Below are positions 19,797 through 26,656 of a stretch of 45,537 bases of DNA, in pieces. Source of the stretch: a candidate division WOR-3 bacterium (lineage in GTDB: Bacteria; Hydrothermota; Tepidihabitantia; Tepidihabitantales; Tepidihabitantaceae); assembly GCA_965648905.1 (NCBI GenBank), contig CBFGIT010000021.1, forward strand, positions 1 to 45,537. The letters are read 5' to 3'. Within the stretch, counting starts at the first letter, position 1. Each line of letters starts with the position of its first letter. Under the pieces are notes generated by a model, which saw nothing but the letters and a program-made list of their open reading frames with translations, made no database searches and had not been told where the DNA came from. The position numbers were made by a program, and so were the translations under genes.

Positions 19797-21649
19797 CCCG
19801 CCTGCACCCGGCGCTTGTCGTCCTCATCCCGGCACTTGCCGCTGCTCTGCTCTACGCTCCAAGCCTTAAGTTCGGGTTTGTCTGGGATGACCGGGCCCTG
19901 ATTCTTGAGAACCCCGAAATCAGAAGCCCCAACCCTTTCCGGCTGTTCGCTCAGAGCTTCACCCATTCCTGGGCGGTTCGCGGGCTCGGCCCCCATGCTT
20001 ACTACCGGCCAATCGTGACCCTGAGCTTCTGGGACGACCATAAGCTGTGGCGTTTCAATCCATTAGGGTACCATCTGACAAGTACTATCCTGAATGCCGT
20101 CGCCACCGCCGTGGTTGCTGTGCTTGCTCTCCTGCTCTTCCGCTCATTCTGGCCGGCTCTCTTTGTCGGACTCGTCTTTGCCCTGCACCCGGCTCATGTT
20201 GAGTCGGTCGCGTTCGTCTCCGGCCGCACCGACCTCCTGATGAGCCTGTTCCTGCTCATCGCACTGATACTTCTGATTCGTGGCCGAAGCCTGGTCTGGG
20301 CTGCCGTTCTGTTCGCGCTTGCCCTGCTCTGCAAGGAAGCAGCAATCCTGTTCCCGGCGCTGGTGCTGGTCTGCAACCCGGGCCAGAGCCCGCGGCGCAG
20401 ACTGTTGCTGACTGCTTTTGTCCTTGCCGCAGTTGCCACAACATATCTTGCAGCACGGACCATGGTCTTGCGCGGCCCTCAGCCAGCCTGGGGTGACGTG
20501 ACCGCAGCCCAGCGCGTGCTGCTGTTCCTGAACGCGGTCGGCCGCTACGCATTCACAACAGTCTTCCCCTTCTACCACCGGCTCACGTATCCGAACCTGG
20601 TTGAGTTCGCATCTGCAGGCTGGCCCACGCCTGTTGGCCTCTTGACCCTGGCTGCAACCGTGTATGCCCTGTGGCGTGAGCGTAATAGTGCGGTCGGGCT
20701 CGGCTCGGGGCTATTCCTGTTGACGCTCCTGCCCGCCAGCAACCTGTTCCCGCCTGGACCATCGTACCTGTCAGAACGTCTGCTCTATCTGCCGACTGCA
20801 GGTGCAGTGATTGCCATTGTTGCCTTGGTCTGCCGTCTACCCAAGGCATGGTCCCGGCCGGCCGCGATTGCCGGCCTGCTGCTCTGCACAGCCATGACCG
20901 CAAGTGTGCTCTACCGTTTGCCCATATGGAAAGACGAACTTAGCCTTGCCGAGACCATGGTCAGAGAGCGACCGCACGACCCTCAGGCCCGAGGCCAATT
21001 GGGCCGGGCTCTGCTCGAACGCGGCCAGACCCGGTCGGCAATCGACGAACTGCGTACTGCCCTGCAGTTGGACCCGGGCGCGACCGACGCAAGATACGAA
21101 CTGGCCCGCTCCCTTCGAGAGTCGAACGACCTTGCCGGTGCTGAGGCTGAACTCAAAGAACTCCTCCGCCAGAATCCCGACTTCCCCGACGCACACGCTC
21201 TTCTCGGCACGGTCCTGCTCGAACAGGGCGATAACCAGGCGGCGATCGAAGCTCTGAGCGTTGCGCTCAGACAGACACCGAATGACGCCATGCTCCACAA
21301 CAACTTAGGCGTTGCCCTGGACCAACTGGGCCGGGTTGACGAAGCCGAGCAGGAGTTCAGACGGGCACTCGAACTCGCCCCCAACCTTGCCCTGGCTCAT
21401 AACAATCTCGGCGAAGTTCTCCTCCGCCGCGGCGACCAGCAGGCAGCCCTGGCCCAGTTCCGACAGGCGCTCGCTTCAAACCCGGACTACGGATTGGCGC
21501 TCTTCAACCTTGGCCTGCTACATGAAGCCCAGGGCAACCGGGAAGAAGCCTTGCGGGCACTGCTTCGCGCTCAGGAGTTGATGCCCGATTTTTCGGGCGT
21601 TGCCGAGGCGCTCCGGCGCATCCGGTCCCAAAAGCCTTGGGAAAACTGA
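19793..21649 (+). CDS. TMTC-like GT-C membrane glycosyltransferase with TPR repeats (paralogue)
   Basis: FVWDD, YYRP, FALHPAHVESV, SERLLYLP then TPRs; GTGA overlap with upstream gene. Confidence 0.85.
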   Translation: MTRLHPALVVLIPALAAALLYAPSLKFGFVWDDRALILENPEIRSPNPFRLFAQSFTHSWAVRGLGPHAYYRPIVTLSFWDDHKLWRFNPLGYHLTSTILNAVATAVVAVLALLLFRSFWPALFVGLVFALHPAHVESVAFVSGRTDLLMSLFLLIALILLIRGRSLVWAAVLFALALLCKEAAILFPALVLVCNPGQSPRRRLLLTAFVLAAVATTYLAARTMVLRGPQPAWGDVTAAQRVLLFLNAVGRYAFTTVFPFYHRLTYPNLVEFASAGWPTPVGLLTLAATVYALWRERNSAVGLGSGLFLLTLLPASNLFPPGPSYLSERLLYLPTAGAVIAIVALVCRLPKAWSRPAAIAGLLLCTAMTASVLYRLPIWKDELSLAETMVRERPHDPQARGQLGRALLERGQTRSAIDELRTALQLDPGATDARYELARSLRESNDLAGAEAELKELLRQNPDFPDAHALLGTVLLEQGDNQAAIEALSVALRQTPNDAMLHNNLGVALDQLGRVDEAEQEFRRALELAPNLALAHNNLGEVLLRRGDQQAALAQFRQALASNPDYGLALFNLGLLHEAQGNREEALRALLRAQELMPDFSGVAEALRRIRSQKPWEN

Positions 21650-21672
21650 AAGCCCGGACAAGCCGGGCTTTC
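21648..21672. terminator. Hairpin between convergent genes
   Basis: GAAAGCCCGG-ACAAG-CCGGGCTTTC perfect 10-bp stem. Confidence 0.7.
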
Positions 21673-21688
21673 GGTATGCTGATGCGTC

Positions 21689-23107
21689 CTATTCGACCAG
21701 AACCAGCCGCGTGACCTGCTGGTGAGGTCCGGCCGCAAGGCGCAGGTAGTATGCACCGCGGCCCACAGCCTTGCCGTCCTCATCGCGACCGTCCCAGACC
21801 GCTTCGTGCTGTCCGGTCGGCTCCAGCCCGGAACGCAGGGTCCGTACCAGGCTGCCTGAGGCCGAGTACACCCAGAGATTGACAAATCCCGGACCAGCCA
21901 GAGAGTACTGCACTGCCACCCGGCCACGGGCTGGATTGGGCCGGGCCGAGAACCGTCCCAGGGTCAGCGCCCGCCGCTCCTCCAGCCCCGAGACGCGCAC
22001 CACGCGCACCTCGCCGGTCAACAGGTTGTTGGCCAGATTCATGTCCGGCCGGTACGTGCCGACCGTACAGCGGGTTGCAAAAGTACCCAGCTCCAAGGGA
22101 GTCCAGGCCCGCAGCGACGCCGTATCACACCGCCCGGCGGCGAGCACAACAGTCGTGCTCTCAACATAGCTCGTGCCGATGAAGAACTTCACCCTGGCCA
22201 TGTCCTGCAACGTGCCGTTGTTTCGGACCTCAACCATGGGCACGACCGCAACACCTGAGTCAACACTGTCCACCGGTGCCAGAATCGCGGTCACCGCCAC
22301 GTCATAGACGTTCACCGTGATATTCAGGCGCTGCCGGTTGTTACTGCCGACCGCGTCGCCGGCAAGCTCGGTTGTGCAGGTCACAACCGACTGACCGCGC
22401 ATCCGCGGACTCCAGTCCGGGAACTGCACGTGTCGAACCGTACCCGGTTCGTGGTTCGTAACCGTGACGGTCGTGTCGTACTCGGTGCCGATGCGCATGC
22501 GTACCGGATAGGTCTCGACGTTCGACGCGTAGTTGTACACCGAGCAACTCGGCGTAACCACTACGCCTGAATCGAGCGTGCCGGTCGGCGCGGCAATGCC
22601 CATCACGCCGACATCATGCTCAATCTGACCCGGCAGGTACTGCTCGATTATCTGGCGGATGAGCTGCTCGTTGAAGCCCTCTTGGAAGAACCGAATGACC
22701 CCTTCCGGGTCTACGACATAGTTCAACGGGATGTAGCCGTTCTGCCGGTAAATGCCCCAGACCGTGCCGTTATCCCGCAGATAGGGATTGGTATTCTGCC
22801 GGGCATACGACCGGACAATCGACATGTCTTCCGACAGATTGATTGCCAGAGCAACAAACCCCTGATTACGGTAGTCTTCATACATTACGGAAAGGCGCGG
22901 TAACTCCGCGCGGCACTGCGGTCAGCTCGACTGCCAGAAGTTCAGCAGTACGACCCGGCCGGCGTACTCGGTGAGCTGATGGTTCACCCAGGCAGTATCA
23001 GGCAAAGTGAAGTTCGGCGCCTGGTCGCCGACATTCAGCACGGCCAGCGCGGTCCCGGGCAGAAGCCCGGCCAGCGCCAGCACAGCAATACGGACTCCGG
23101 TTCTCAT
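21689..23107 (-). CDS. Exported selenoprotein: TlpA/redoxin (UxxC) + two Ig/CARDB-like domains + FlgD/T9SS-type C-terminal domain (472 aa)
   Basis: ORFs 22922-23107 and 21689-22885 are in frame; reads LLNFWQSS-TGA-PQCRAELPRL; signal peptide; downstream hairpin. Confidence 0.88.
22895..22911 (-). promoter_or_regulatory. Putative bacterial SECIS element
   Basis: GCGCGG-AGTTA-CCGCGC hairpin starting 11 nt after the in-frame TGA (22924-22922). Confidence 0.65.
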
Positions 23108-23158
23108 GTGTCCTTCTTTCGAGCTTGATTATCGTTCGCAGTCCTGCGTCTCGCAACT

Positions 23159-23186
23159 ATTCTAGCGCCAGGTGCGAGCCGGTCAA
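23159..23186 (-). promoter_or_regulatory. Promoter for selenoprotein gene
   Basis: TTGACC-N16-TAGAAT. Confidence 0.6.
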
Positions 23187-23215: not shown

Positions 23216-23533
23216 AACCACCAAGCACACCAAGGGCACGAAGAGGAAGAAGCCGAATACAGAATGCAAATTGCAGAATGCAGAAGGCAAAATGGCGAAG
23301 AGCGAAGAGCTAACGGCGGGCGGCGCTTACGCGACGGGTGTCAATAATTTCGGCATGTGTCACCGGAATTCCGAGAAGGCAGAATACAGAGTGCAGAAGG
23401 CAAAGGGCAGAATGACGAAGAGCGAGAAGCGAAAGGCGAAGGACGAGTGGCGACCTTGGCGGTCTTGGTGGTTAGTGGTTCGCCTGCGCTTACGCGACCG
23501 GTGTCAATAATCCCGGCATGTGTCACCGGAATT
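23216..23533. repeat. Composite repeat island: heptamer tracts, 48-bp direct repeat (23323-23370, 23486-23533), imperfect inverted repeat
   Basis: 45 of 48 nt identical between copies; GCAGAAT-type 7-mers; AACCACCAAG..CCAAGG inverted pair. Confidence 0.85.
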
Positions 23534-23593: not shown

Positions 23594-24400
23594 CTAGTAC
23601 AGAATGCCAACTAGACCGATGCCGACGTGTAGCGTCAGGCCGTCCTCTGTTTCGTCGTAATGCGTGAAGCGGTCGAAGACCAACCCGAACTCGAACGGGA
23701 TACCCACGTGCGGAACAACCTGCATCATCACTCCGCCCGATGCCTTGAACCGCATGCCGTTCAGGTCATATGTGGACGAGTATTCATCACTGGTGTGCAA
23801 ACGCGCATAGCCGAAGCCCAGTCCGAAGAACGGCAGGGACTTGCTGCCCGCATCTCCGAACACCGCCACCGCCTTCGGACAGATCGCGAAGCCAGTGTAT
23901 GTGGCAGTAGTAGCGTAGTAGCCGCCGTAGCCGTAGCGCTCATAGGTCACCAAATTGACACTTACCGAGAGGTCAGCACCCAGCCCGATTCCACGTGATA
24001 CGAACATCACGTAACTGGGTGCGAGCGCGAAAAGCACGATCGGGTATTCACCGTACAACTGCCCTGAAAATAGTGCGAACTCCATGGACCCGCCTATCAG
24101 GCTGCTGCCTTGGCCGGAGGCGAATCTGGCCGGGGTCAGCCCTGCCGCCGGACTCACGAACTGCGCCGGCGATGTGACAGGCTGCATGCTGCCCTGACCG
24201 TACTCGACCCTCACGATGTTTGCCATTGGGACATCCAGTCGGCCGTAGCTGGTCTCGAGCAACAGCATGCCTTCCTGCTGCCCTACGATCTTGCCCCGCA
24301 GGGTGCTACCGTCCTTCAGCACAATGGACTGCACCTCCTGTGCGACAAGAGAACTACAAACTAGCACGAGCACTGCCGCGAGTCGGATGCGAGTAGACAT
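23594..24400 (-). CDS. Secreted protein: LKDGS N-terminal domain + probable outer-membrane beta-barrel
   Basis: Signal peptide, AGGAGG RBS before ATG 24400, amphipathic strands ending LHVGIGLVGILY. Confidence 0.75.
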   Translation of the reverse strand: MSTRIRLAAVLVLVCSSLVAQEVQSIVLKDGSTLRGKIVGQQEGMLLLETSYGRLDVPMANIVRVEYGQGSMQPVTSPAQFVSPAAGLTPARFASGQGSSLIGGSMEFALFSGQLYGEYPIVLFALAPSYVMFVSRGIGLGADLSVSVNLVTYERYGYGGYYATTATYTGFAICPKAVAVFGDAGSKSLPFFGLGFGYARLHTSDEYSSTYDLNGMRFKASGGVMMQVVPHVGIPFEFGLVFDRFTHYDETEDGLTLHVGIGLVGILY

Positions 24401-24424
24401 CGTACCTCCTTGTTCCTGCAATCG

Positions 24425-25129
24425 CTAGAATCTCACCTTCAAGCCGACTCGCGCCGAGGCCTCGCCAGCCGGGCAGTCGAGCGCTAGCGCGGTCTGCAAC
24501 CGGTCATGGTAGGGTGCAAAGCGGTACTCAGCGTAAGCCGACTGTGTAGCTCGGTCGAAGTCGAACGCCCAGCCATAGCGCTTGTTGTAGGCATTGAGGG
24601 AAGCGTACGTGTGGACGTACTCAATCAGCCTGAACGGAGCTAGTATGAGTAACGGTGGGAGGTCCGGCGAGCCGTAAGGACCGGCCTCGGCGATTTCCAC
24701 CGCGGTCCATATCATCAGCGGCATGCCTACGCAGAAGTAGCCTGCCGCCCAGCCGTACTCCTCTGCGTAGACCATGCCAGCTCCGGGGATGAGCCACGCG
24801 AAGAAGCACCCCAGGCACGGCTCCTTCTTGGGTTTGACGTGGAACTGGCTTGCCTGCATCTGCTCAGGCGCTGCGCCCGGGAACGCCGTCTGTGGCTGGA
24901 CGGCGCCGCCGGTGGCGTACTCAACCCGGAGCACGTTGGCCTTGGGCACCTCCAGCTTGCCGTAGTCTGTTTCGACCAGCAACATGGTCGCGTCCTGGTG
25001 GACCACGTTGCCACGGATCGTGCTGCCGTCCTTCAGGTAGATGACCTGCACTTCTTGAGCCAGTGCTGCTGTAGAGAGTATCAGCAGCGTTAACAGACTA
25101 CAACCCCAGGTCCCGAGGCTTCGTCTCAT
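24425..25129 (-). CDS. Secreted/membrane protein: LKDGS N-terminal domain + TM2-like segment
   Basis: AAGGAGG RBS before ATG 25129; KKEP..FAWLIPGAGMVY; ends ARVGLKVRF. Confidence 0.75.
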   Translation of the reverse strand: MRRSLGTWGCSLLTLLILSTAALAQEVQVIYLKDGSTIRGNVVHQDATMLLVETDYGKLEVPKANVLRVEYATGGAVQPQTAFPGAAPEQMQASQFHVKPKKEPCLGCFFAWLIPGAGMVYAEEYGWAAGYFCVGMPLMIWTAVEIAEAGPYGSPDLPPLLILAPFRLIEYVHTYASLNAYNKRYGWAFDFDRATQSAYAEYRFAPYHDRLQTALALDCPAGEASARVGLKVRF

Positions 25130-25453
25130 GTTTTCCTCCTTAAGCGTTTCAAGCCTCACAGAGGCGCGGATACGGTTTGTCTCGGTAAGCCGGCCGCGTT
25201 ACCGGCGTACCGGTCATCTTGTCTCTCGCCGACCAGTCCATGCCAGCCCAGCAGCTCAGGTGCCCGACTCTTCCGAGTCGACGGAAGGAAGTGGAACCCG
25301 CTTGCAGGAGACATTCGCTGAATGAGTACGGGTCTGACTATCGGGCTGGCATGCGCGCACGGTCTAGAACCATGAACCTAACTGACACGACCTTACACTT
25401 CCACTCGGGAACTCTGCCGCAGTGTCGATGGCATCCTTGACTGCTCAGTGACA

Positions 25454-26656
25454 TCAGTGCAGCCAATCGAAAGAGCGCCCCTCACTGAACTCCTGCACCA
25501 GCCCGCCGATGTTGTTGAAAGCCAGCGCGACTTTGACGTTGGTCGTGCTGAAATCGTATATCGCGGCGTCGCTCGAGAAGTCCACCCGGAGATAGTCCTT
25601 GTAAGAGAGGGCGCAGCCTACGCAGAGACCGATGCGTCTCAACCTGCCGAGCCCGGGCCCAGTGAGGACGTCGCCGAGTCCGTAGTGATACGTCTGCCCT
25701 GCGTCGTTTTCGAAGACCAGACCGCCACGCTGGCCGGTGAGGTCTTCGAAGTACCCGAGCCGAAAGGTTAGAATCTGGAGGGCCGTCACCTCGATCGCTA
25801 CACTCTTCCACATGTCGCGCAGCTCCTCTCCCAGCTTCCGTCTCAGCGGTTTCTTACCCGTCGAGTCGTAGAACATCCCGACCAGGACCTTGTCCAGTTC
25901 CAACACCGGCCGCATGCGTACAAACCTGTCGCACAGCGTGAAGGACGCGCCGATGCGCAGCGTTCGGGGCAGCGGGTCGCTCTCGCCGTGCTCGTAGTAT
26001 GAGATGTTCGGACCAATGTTCGCGAGGGTTATGCCGAACGAGAGAAAGTGCAGAGGTCTGTACAACACCCCAAAGTCCGCCGCCACCGTGTTCCCGGTAC
26101 CACCACGCTCAATACCCAGTTCGGGCATGACCTTCCAGACCCACTCGGGAACGAGGAAACTGCGGATGTACTTGGCGTTGAGCCCAACGCCAAGGGTAGG
26201 GTGCACACGGACGCCGCCGTGGATGCCGGCGAAGAGGTCGTAGGTTGTGTAACGTCCGAGGAACTCGCCCCGTTCGTTTATCACGTCAGTCTTGCCGGTC
26301 GAAAAGTACATCCAATCCACGCCTGCATTCAGATTCATCTTACTGACCGGCAGTCCGAGGCCGGCACTGCCGTAGTAGTAGTACATCCCCGGGTAGAGAC
26401 CAGGGAGCCATTGGGCGAAAGTCGCGCAGCCGCCAAGGCTCTGTTGGAATCCCAATCCGCCCGCATTCCAGTATGCCGCATCGGCGTCATCGGCCAATGC
26501 GGTCATCGCGCCCGCCAGCGCGGTAGAGCGGGCGGTCGGCCAAACCATCAGGAACACGGCTCCGGGATTCTGCCTGGCGTGCAGACCCGGCGCACTCAGA
26601 CAGACGGCCATTGCGACGAGCGCGGCCATTTGACTCAGCCTCTTTCCCATATGCAT
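25454..26656 (-). CDS. porV: PorV/PorQ-family outer-membrane barrel (T9SS cargo shuttle-like)
   Basis: GAVFLMVWPTARSTALAG..ADDADAAYWN.GGL, QWLP, NIGPNISY..SDPLP..LR.G. Confidence 0.8.
   Translation of the reverse strand: MHMGKRLSQMAALVAMAVCLSAPGLHARQNPGAVFLMVWPTARSTALAGAMTALADDADAAYWNAGGLGFQQSLGGCATFAQWLPGLYPGMYYYYGSAGLGLPVSKMNLNAGVDWMYFSTGKTDVINERGEFLGRYTTYDLFAGIHGGVRVHPTLGVGLNAKYIRSFLVPEWVWKVMPELGIERGGTGNTVAADFGVLYRPLHFLSFGITLANIGPNISYYEHGESDPLPRTLRIGASFTLCDRFVRMRPVLELDKVLVGMFYDSTGKKPLRRKLGEELRDMWKSVAIEVTALQILTFRLGYFEDLTGQRGGLVFENDAGQTYHYGLGDVLTGPGLGRLRRIGLCVGCALSYKDYLRVDFSSDAAIYDFSTTNVKVALAFNNIGGLVQEFSEGRSFDWLH

Follow-up and report, generated by a model that had tools for sequence, protein, structure and literature searches.

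Two adjacent open reading frames (ORFs) on the minus strand of a candidate division WOR-3 genome raise the question of whether they are separate genes or a single gene in which UGA is read as selenocysteine (Sec). The window analysed was the whole 45,537-nt stretch of contig CBFGIT010000021.1 (i.e. positions 1 to 45,537; assembly GCA_965648905.1), and the locus occupies positions 21689..23107. A preliminary description, made from the letters alone, had proposed an exported selenoprotein comprising a UxxC redoxin, immunoglobulin (Ig)-like domains and a tail of the type recognised by a type IX secretion system (T9SS). Comparison with relatives makes it nearly certain that the locus encodes a true, conserved selenoprotein. 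We have good confidence in the fuller reading, whereby one gene encodes a 472-residue Sec redoxin that is predicted to be exported, and which would be delivered by a T9SS on an Ig-like stalk and would reduce disulfides.

Translation of the minus strand gave one frame of 472 codons, from an ATG at 23107 to a TAG at 21691-21689, and the sole break in this frame was a TGA at 22924-22922. The proposal that the two predicted ORFs constitute a single frame, open from 23107 to 21689 except for one TGA, was confirmed. ORF calling with genetic code table 11 cuts the gene at the TGA into a 61-aa ORF and a 398-aa ORF, the latter starting at ATG 22885. The TGA is codon 62, and read-through produces the motif NFWQSS-U-PQC-RAELP. 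The parts of the gene, with the evidence for each, are as follows.

21689..23107, minus strand: whole gene, 472 codons plus a TAG stop, with one in-frame TGA as Sec (translation; full-length orthologues, 50-79% identical, from 15 other genomes)
23042..23107, minus strand: predicted signal peptide, residues 1-22, predicted cleavage at A-L-A/V (sequence features and orthologue conservation)
22634..23032, minus strand: ResA/TlpA-like thioredoxin-fold domain, residues 26-158, with U62-P-Q-C65, E68 and the cis-Pro P127 (Pfam, Foldseek and ResA alignment)
22922..22924, minus strand: UGA selenocysteine codon, residue 62 (conservation in relatives)
22895..22911, minus strand: hairpin of the selenocysteine insertion sequence (SECIS) type, 6-bp stem GCGCGG/CCGCGC and loop AGUUA (comparative alignment)
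22310..22612, minus strand: Ig-like (distantly CARDB-like) beta-sandwich 1, residues 166-266 (AlphaFold2 (AF2) model)
21998..22300, minus strand: Ig-like beta-sandwich 2, residues 270-370 (AF2 model)
21692..21952, minus strand: C-terminal seven-strand beta-sandwich tag (FlgD_ig; resembling a T9SS C-terminal domain), residues 386-472 (Pfam, AF2 and tail profile)

To examine conservation of the TGA, 41 related genomes were searched in six frames. The full-length counterparts at 50-79% identity all came from the same family as the source. Including the source copy, 14 of the 16 long forms contained a single TGA, always at the identical alignment column, and the two TGA-less copies read S-T-C-G-H-C. 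The same genomes, the source genome included, also carry a short paralogue consisting of the redoxin and tail without the middle domains. Of 14 parsed copies of this paralogue, 13 had TGA at that column and one had Cys. Across both forms, TGA therefore occupied the same column in 27/27 Sec-type relatives from >10 genera, with Cys there in 3 others; the TGA was indeed conserved and accompanied by Cys homologues, as would not be expected of a recent nonsense mutation. One locus (L056, in G018:C91), for which the searches list one TGA copy and one non-TGA copy, was left unparsed by the motif pattern and excluded from this count. A wider sample of 251 genomes from the phylum gave redoxin matches in 44 genomes at E<=1e-20, with exactly one in-frame TGA in 63 of the 72 matched places and none in 9; the position of the TGA at the relevant column was confirmed in the 27 Sec forms rather than across all 63 places. 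In a tree of 30 redoxin domains the long and short forms were separate, and the Cys forms sat at two separate positions among the Sec forms, requiring at least two changes. This pattern fits repeated replacement of Sec by Cys, the root being assumed from the split between the paralogues. The short paralogue of the source genome (G000:C3:95673-96137, minus strand; locus L044; TGA at C3:95969-95967) has no Ig-like domains and consists of a signal peptide, a UxxC redoxin whose motif reads U-QG-C, and the same tail; its hairpin is of the U-A version described below.

Were the TGA a genuine stop, the locus would be either a recent pseudogene or a source of two products, i.e. a 61-aa peptide and a 398-aa protein initiated at ATG 22885. 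The two ORFs produced by table-11 calling are exactly those expected under this explanation, and public annotation calls a piece of ~400 aa in many relatives. It is, however, difficult to reconcile with TGA at one column in 27 loci and Cys in 3 others, or with the conservation of the 61 codons upstream of the TGA, which among the 16 orthologues was as strong as that downstream. Additionally, the 398-aa piece alone would be a protein with a secretion tail, no signal peptide and a partial thioredoxin fold. Termination at this codon is thus very improbable.

The database annotations are consistent with systematic truncation. Among 29 database proteins matching at E<=1e-10, whose named sources were candidate division WOR-3, 9 covered the redoxin and 20 started after the TGA. 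A CxxC was present in 7 of the 9 redoxin-covering proteins and a degenerate site in the other 2. The 20 post-TGA proteins were 271-407 aa long and had either PF13860 as their only domain or no domain. Standard annotation therefore misses this protein, as had been anticipated, with Sec forms called as hypothetical proteins of ~400 aa that begin past the TGA and lack the redox domain. Because public calls truncate the Sec forms, both the size of the selenoproteome and the functions of the surface proteome of WOR-3 and related phyla are underestimated. The two full-length relatives with degenerate sites (P0007 and P0015) have D-PS-S and D-YPD-C in place of U/C-xx-C and are possibly redox-inactive derivatives.

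The capacity of the organism to insert Sec was assessed in the source genome (3.01 Mb, 60 contigs, 99.6% complete). The preliminary description had named the Sec machinery as a check, and selA, selB, selC and selD were all found above curated cut-offs. A tRNA-Sec scored 72 bits and was called by ARAGORN as SeC with anticodon tca; selA and selB scored 560 and 348 bits, respectively. Two selD genes were detected (G000:C4:87631-88554 and C8:88040-88942), the second directly adjoining selB (C8:89013-90884). Each selD carries one in-frame TGA, and SelD is therefore itself a selenoprotein here. TGA is otherwise an ordinary stop in this genome, terminating 478 of the 1082 open frames of at least 400 codons. 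These data bear on a further explanation, in which the TGA encodes an ordinary amino acid under a variant code or is an assembly or sequencing error. The use of TGA as a frequent terminator, including in orthologue L026, which itself ends with TGA, contradicts a variant code. Sequencing error, which had also been flagged for checking, is excluded because the same TGA recurs in 27 independently assembled loci. The evidence from the SECIS-type hairpin and from the Sec machinery is specific to Sec, and the likelihood of a variant code or an error is negligible.

The preliminary description had also noted a 6-bp GC hairpin with a G-containing loop, 11 nt downstream of the TGA. The sequence GCGCGG-AGUUA-CCGCGC has arms at 22911-22906 and 22900-22895 and a loop at 22905-22901, and begins at the eleventh nucleotide after the UGA. 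Two observations weigh against reading this element as a SECIS. When folded as a single sequence, the hairpin was not distinguishable from shuffled sequence (z = 0.8), and its conservation must partly reflect protein constraint because it lies inside the conserved coding stretch RAELPR. Since the lone-sequence fold is non-significant, the structural case rests on comparison. A perfect 6-bp stem was present at the same offset, with a loop of AGUUR, in 27/27 Sec forms. Across this 27-sequence alignment the upper stem was paired in 162/162 cells; five pairs were invariant and the closing pair was G-C in 15 sequences, U-A in 12 and mismatched in none. In the U-A state the 5' arm has CUC for CGC (Leu for Arg) and the 3' arm the synonymous CGA for CGC; this state was found both in a clade of long forms and in short forms. 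Synonymous sites of GCG-GAG-TTR-CCG were fixed in all Sec forms and drifting in the 3 Cys forms. The hairpin was degraded in each of these Cys forms: one contained a G.U pair, another combined a C-A mismatch with an altered loop, and the third retained only 3/6 pairs. Two of the three kept the peptide RAELPR. By its conservation with covariation in all 27 Sec forms, the hairpin is above chance, and the proposed element was upheld. A lower SECIS stem (columns 8-11 with 34-37) was considered; it was paired in 74% of cells and absent from the source copy, and is not claimed. The same 11-nt spacing between UGA and a 6-bp hairpin recurred in four other candidate Sec genes of the genome, where the loop was GGUC or AGUU. 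The fdhF SECIS has an 11-nt spacing and a GGUC loop. The hairpin at a selD locus was of a different type and was not used as evidence. The clean covariation, from G-C to U-A via a synonymous change, provides an RNA model for finding genes of this kind.

Placement of the TGA at the first Cys of a TlpA motif, as originally suggested, was supported by a phmmer alignment to Bacillus subtilis ResA, in which U62 fell on the first Cys of the CxxC and C65 on the second. In the same alignment E68 matched the conserved Glu three residues past the second Cys, and P127 matched the cis-Pro. These four positions were invariant in the 16 orthologues, with Sec or Cys in the U62 column. Pfam AhpC-TSA (PF00578) matched residues 26-140 with 70.9 bits (cut-off 26) and was matched in 16/16 orthologues; Redoxin (PF08534) scored 51 bits (cut-off 26.6) and Thioredoxin_8 was also matched. 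An AF2 model was generated from the 16-orthologue alignment with a mean predicted local distance difference test (pLDDT) score of 83. It contained a thioredoxin fold, with a helix (residues 63-82) starting directly after U62. Beyond this head came the two middle beta-sandwiches (residues 166-266 and residues 270-370) and, after a linker modelled with low confidence, a C-terminal sandwich of seven strands. Foldseek superposed the head on ResA (2f9s) with a template modelling (TM) score of 0.86, a root-mean-square deviation (rmsd) of 1.9 A and 28% identity. The top Foldseek matches of the whole model (ciliary and complement proteins) were discarded as artefacts of multiple Ig domains, with rmsd values of 12-22 A. 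NCBIfam subfamily models were all below cut-off (ResA, 68.2 vs 170 bits; TlpA, 36 vs 230; DsbE, 31.1 vs 123), so the head is ResA/TlpA-like in its working parts and an orthologue of none of them. The NCBIfam selenoprotein models were likewise not reached (WAxxUGC_long, 25.6/300 bits; PrxU, 19.9/270; TUGYCR, 14.5/100).

Export was considered next to this catalytic head. The N-terminus reads M-R-T-G-V-R followed by a hydrophobic core and A-L-A/V, and in the A-x-A site A22 was invariant and A20 nearly invariant among the 16 orthologues. From these features it is predicted to be a signal peptide of the general secretory (Sec) type, in agreement with the preliminary description.

Both middle domains were modelled as beta-sandwiches. 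The earlier designation of two Ig/CARDB-like domains holds for the predicted fold; its CARDB component rests on the fold and on weak matches, since CARDB (PF07705) had no match in the source protein at E<=1 and matched weakly in 3/16 orthologues (best E 3.4e-4). The Ig-like module recurs in 67 ORFs of the source genome, in up to 16 copies per ORF. Cys residues of the Ig domains were considered as a redox relay and rejected, as Cys is generic to the module (177/215 and 181/219 copies).

The C-terminal tail was assigned to FlgD_ig (PF13860; residues 396-459, 43.2 bits vs a cut-off of 27) in the source protein, and this domain was found in 12/16 orthologues. It was present on 144 ORFs of the source genome, and 129 of 145 domain copies ended no more than 5 residues from the stop. 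As the tail and the Ig-like module both recur genome-wide, the body of the protein is this lineage's standard secreted-protein scaffold, here with a redoxin head. With about 144 tail ORFs and 67 Ig-module ORFs, the set of proteins predicted to be secreted or surface-borne is very large for a genome of 3 Mb. A tail profile matched the C-terminal domain of Porphyromonas gingivalis PorU (6za2, residues 1061-1138; E 1.5e-4) and also FlgD structures (E 1.4e-9). When folded, the tail formed 7 strands (pLDDT 87) that superposed on the C-terminal domains of PorU (TMq 0.69) and PorZ (TMq 0.64). In the remaining 4/16 orthologues (loci L030, L033, L035 and L036, in G015, G005, G021 and G013, respectively) a different, Por_Secre_tail-like tail (LLD-x-x-GR...PG-x-Y) occupied the same place. 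Because orthologues carry one or other of two unrelated-looking tails, the sorting tags have apparently been swapped in evolution. A search for T9SS machinery, covering SprA, PorU and PorV, detected SprA above cut-off (456 bits), PorV-like genes and two full-length PorU-like genes, one PorU-like gene having a PorV-like neighbour. Another PorV-like gene lies within the window at 25454-26656 (minus strand), 2.3 kb upstream of the selenoprotein gene (Pfam PorV, 30.5 vs 27 bits; NCBIfam, 75.9 bits, below cut-off). This gene is followed by two ORFs with signal peptides and no family assignment (24425-25159 and 23594-24421).

Several scores tell against delivery by a T9SS. The source tail reached 16.9 bits on TIGR04183 (cut-off 23), the orthologues with the alternative tail peaked at 18.8 bits on the same model, and PF18962 matched only 2/16 orthologues (E 0.034). 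The tail fold matched generic Ig-like sandwiches, FlgD and C5a peptidase beside PorU and PorZ. Similarly, the two PorU-like genes scored 357 and 354 bits against an NCBIfam cut-off of 420, and PorV-like reached 77.5 bits against 250. These low scores and generic fold matches are compatible with a periplasmic selenoprotein, in which FlgD_ig would be merely an Ig-like module and the redoxin would be re-reduced by a CcdA/DsbD-type protein, as for ResA and TlpA. The closest relatives with solved structures, ResA and DsbE, act in the periplasm or at the cytoplasmic membrane's outer face, and the genome does contain one CcdA/DsbD-type (DsbD_TM) gene, located away from the selenoprotein locus. A periplasmic location does not, however, account for the position of the tail at the extreme C-terminus in nearly all copies, its exchange for a Por_Secre_tail-like tail, its sequence relation to the PorU C-terminal domain or the presence of SprA, PorU-like and PorV-like genes. 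Furthermore, the protein has neither a membrane anchor nor cytochrome-maturation neighbours. We consider the periplasmic alternative unlikely and the protein very probably a T9SS cargo. As the tail falls below the curated cut-off for T9SS type A, surface secretion is a well-supported inference and not a demonstration. For the originally proposed T9SS-type tail, the C-terminal position and the relation to the PorU C-terminal domain are in favour, and the TIGR04183 score is not.

The steps by which such a protein might be made and act can be outlined. While the ribosome is on the UGA, SelB carrying Sec-tRNA-Sec would bind the hairpin and Sec would be inserted. The signal peptide would direct the product to the periplasm, where the C-terminal beta-sandwich tag would hand it to the T9SS (SprA, PorV-like and PorU-like proteins). 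The redoxin head would come to lie outside the outer membrane, borne on its two-domain Ig-like stalk and either released or kept attached. The U62 selenolate could then attack a disulfide, or another oxidised sulphur or selenium species, in an extracellular substrate, and C65 would resolve the selenenylsulfide, as in ResA-type reductases.

Activity as a surface thiol-disulfide reductase is the most likely function, although our confidence in it is only about even. A different chemistry is conceivable, in which the exported protein would be a selenium-based peroxidase or would shield the surface of an anaerobe against oxidants, the selenenic acid formed with peroxide being resolved by C65. Sec reacts fast with peroxides, the best Pfam match (AhpC/TSA) is a family that includes peroxiredoxins, and a faint GSHPx match was seen. 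Conversely, the residues preceding U62 are V-L-L-N-F-W-Q-S-S, and the peroxiredoxin signature PxxxTxxC, as given in a 2026 review (PMC13188914), is absent. In both sequence and structure the head comes nearest to ResA, DsbE and TlpA, and the Glu that follows the second Cys in ResA is present as well. A peroxidase role seems improbable, if slightly less so than a periplasmic location, and these two are the serious competitors of the favoured reading. The supply of electrons counts against a surface reductase: the single CcdA/DsbD-type gene would serve the periplasm. We know of no electron donor for a redoxin outside the outer membrane.

One speculative extension is that WOR-3 bacteria possess an extracellular selenoproteome delivered by the T9SS, in which Ig-stalk Sec-redoxins outside the outer membrane would reduce disulfides or polysulfides independently of a donor and be recharged by sulfide or thiols in the surroundings. 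We offer this tentatively, as a possibility with perhaps one chance in a few of being right. If true, selenium would make a redox enzyme workable beyond the reach of the cellular electron supply. A heuristic scan of the source genome detected at least 8 tail-bearing Sec candidates, comprising 2 UxxC redoxins of the present family, 2 further UxxC proteins and a four-member family. The four-member family consists of paralogous tail ORFs with a TGA at G000:C3:118095-118093, C23:28099-28101, C14:53495-53493 and C31:24859-24861. These ORFs extend upstream across the TGA into signal-peptide N-termini ('...NLLVNGDFEQ') and share the motif G-x-U-G-x-x-[WM]-A-[EK]-V. They are the four candidate genes noted above whose 6-bp hairpins start 11 nt past the UGA, and among these hairpins one stem change is compensatory; the group resembles another family of secreted selenoproteins. 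Two other tail ORFs (TGA at G000:C17:41249-41247 and C18:18745-18747) have a signal peptide before the TGA and the contexts EG-U-AQC and G-U-PYC.

The surroundings of the gene were also inspected. It stands alone, convergent with a gene for a tetratricopeptide repeat (TPR)/PMT-like membrane protein and with a repeat-rich spacer of 480 bp upstream. Three flanking elements were recorded.

23111..23116, minus strand: ribosome-binding site GAAGGA, 3 nt 5' of the ATG (read from sequence)
23159..23186, minus strand: sigma-70-like promoter match TTGACC-16-TAGAAT (consensus match only)
21649..21671, minus strand: inverted repeat AAAGCCCGG-CTTGT-CCGGGCTTT followed by a T-rich run, a likely terminator common to the convergent TPR gene (read from sequence)

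Motifs resembling AAGGA or GAAGG precede most orthologue start codons. A consensus scan for terminators made no call at the inverted repeat. Within the spacer (23216-23533) there are direct repeats with a 48-nt unit (94% identity, 163-nt spacing), a 64-nt repeat family with 3 copies and a 20-nt inverted repeat with copies 218 nt apart. The sole neighbour common to the genome of the same genus was the TPR gene, and no operon partner was seen. Comparison of orthologue neighbourhoods revealed no redox partner or conserved neighbour beyond the same genus, which counts against the favoured reading.

The published record covers the catalytic module more fully than the architecture. The available parts of the 2026 review predict with high confidence a 'Prx-like thiol:disulfide oxidoreductase' (PF00578, UxxC/UxxU) and also list a 'Thiol-disulfide isomerase-like' family (cd02966, UxxC), a 'Redoxin family protein' (PF08534, UxxC) and a UGC-type TlpA family (PMC13188914). 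In the available parts of the Global Ocean Sampling (GOS) survey, 'Prx-like 1' (pfam00578, UxxC, 225 sequences), some domain fusions and predicted secreted protease selenoproteins are reported (PMC2398784). As both sources list UxxC PF00578 families, the catalytic module is of a known kind. T9SS, FlgD, CARDB, 'signal peptide' and 'secreted' do not occur in the available text of the review (PMC13188914), and that of the GOS survey contains no T9SS, FlgD or CARDB context (PMC2398784). By title and abstract, none of the listed papers was relevant to a link of selenoproteins with type IX secretion or T9SS, or of WOR-3 with selenocysteine. The location and architecture can accordingly be called unusual, as first suggested, in that the UxxC redoxin is itself known and the surface-display build was not found in the literature searched. 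If this Sec-redoxin family is secretion-system cargo, selenium chemistry would take place on or outside the surface of an uncultured anaerobic lineage.

The protein can be compared with four known systems. The 'Prx-like thiol:disulfide oxidoreductase' family is similar in its AhpC-TSA domain, thioredoxin-like fold, UxxC with Sec first and Cys homologues; the WOR-3 protein differs in its signal peptide, two Ig-like domains and sorting tag, the Prx-like families being described by their redox domain only. The hairpin resembles the SECIS of Escherichia coli fdhF in being a stem-loop that lies within the coding sequence directly 3' of the UGA and whose apical loop contains G and U, but has a short stem (6 bp), an AGUUR loop and a lower stem that is only partly paired. 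That a protein with a redox fold can be T9SS cargo has a precedent in P. gingivalis HBP35. According to two reports, HBP35 combines a thioredoxin-like motif with a conserved domain at its C-terminus, is active as a thioredoxin, and depends on the Por/T9SS for its secretion and its attachment to the surface (PMC2907840, PMC3120885). HBP35, likened here by description only, is a Cys-based, hemin-binding protein of a Bacteroidota pathogen and is without an Ig-like stalk. The best structural and sequence match was to B. subtilis ResA and the TlpA/DsbE/CcmG-type proteins, with which the head shares the W-x-x-x-C-x-x-C-x-x-E-x-P region and the cis-Pro loop. In contrast to ResA, the WOR-3 protein lacks a membrane anchor and a cytochrome c maturation context and scores below the ResA subfamily cut-off; it has Sec in place of the first Cys, and its head is fused to an Ig-like stalk and a C-terminal tail.

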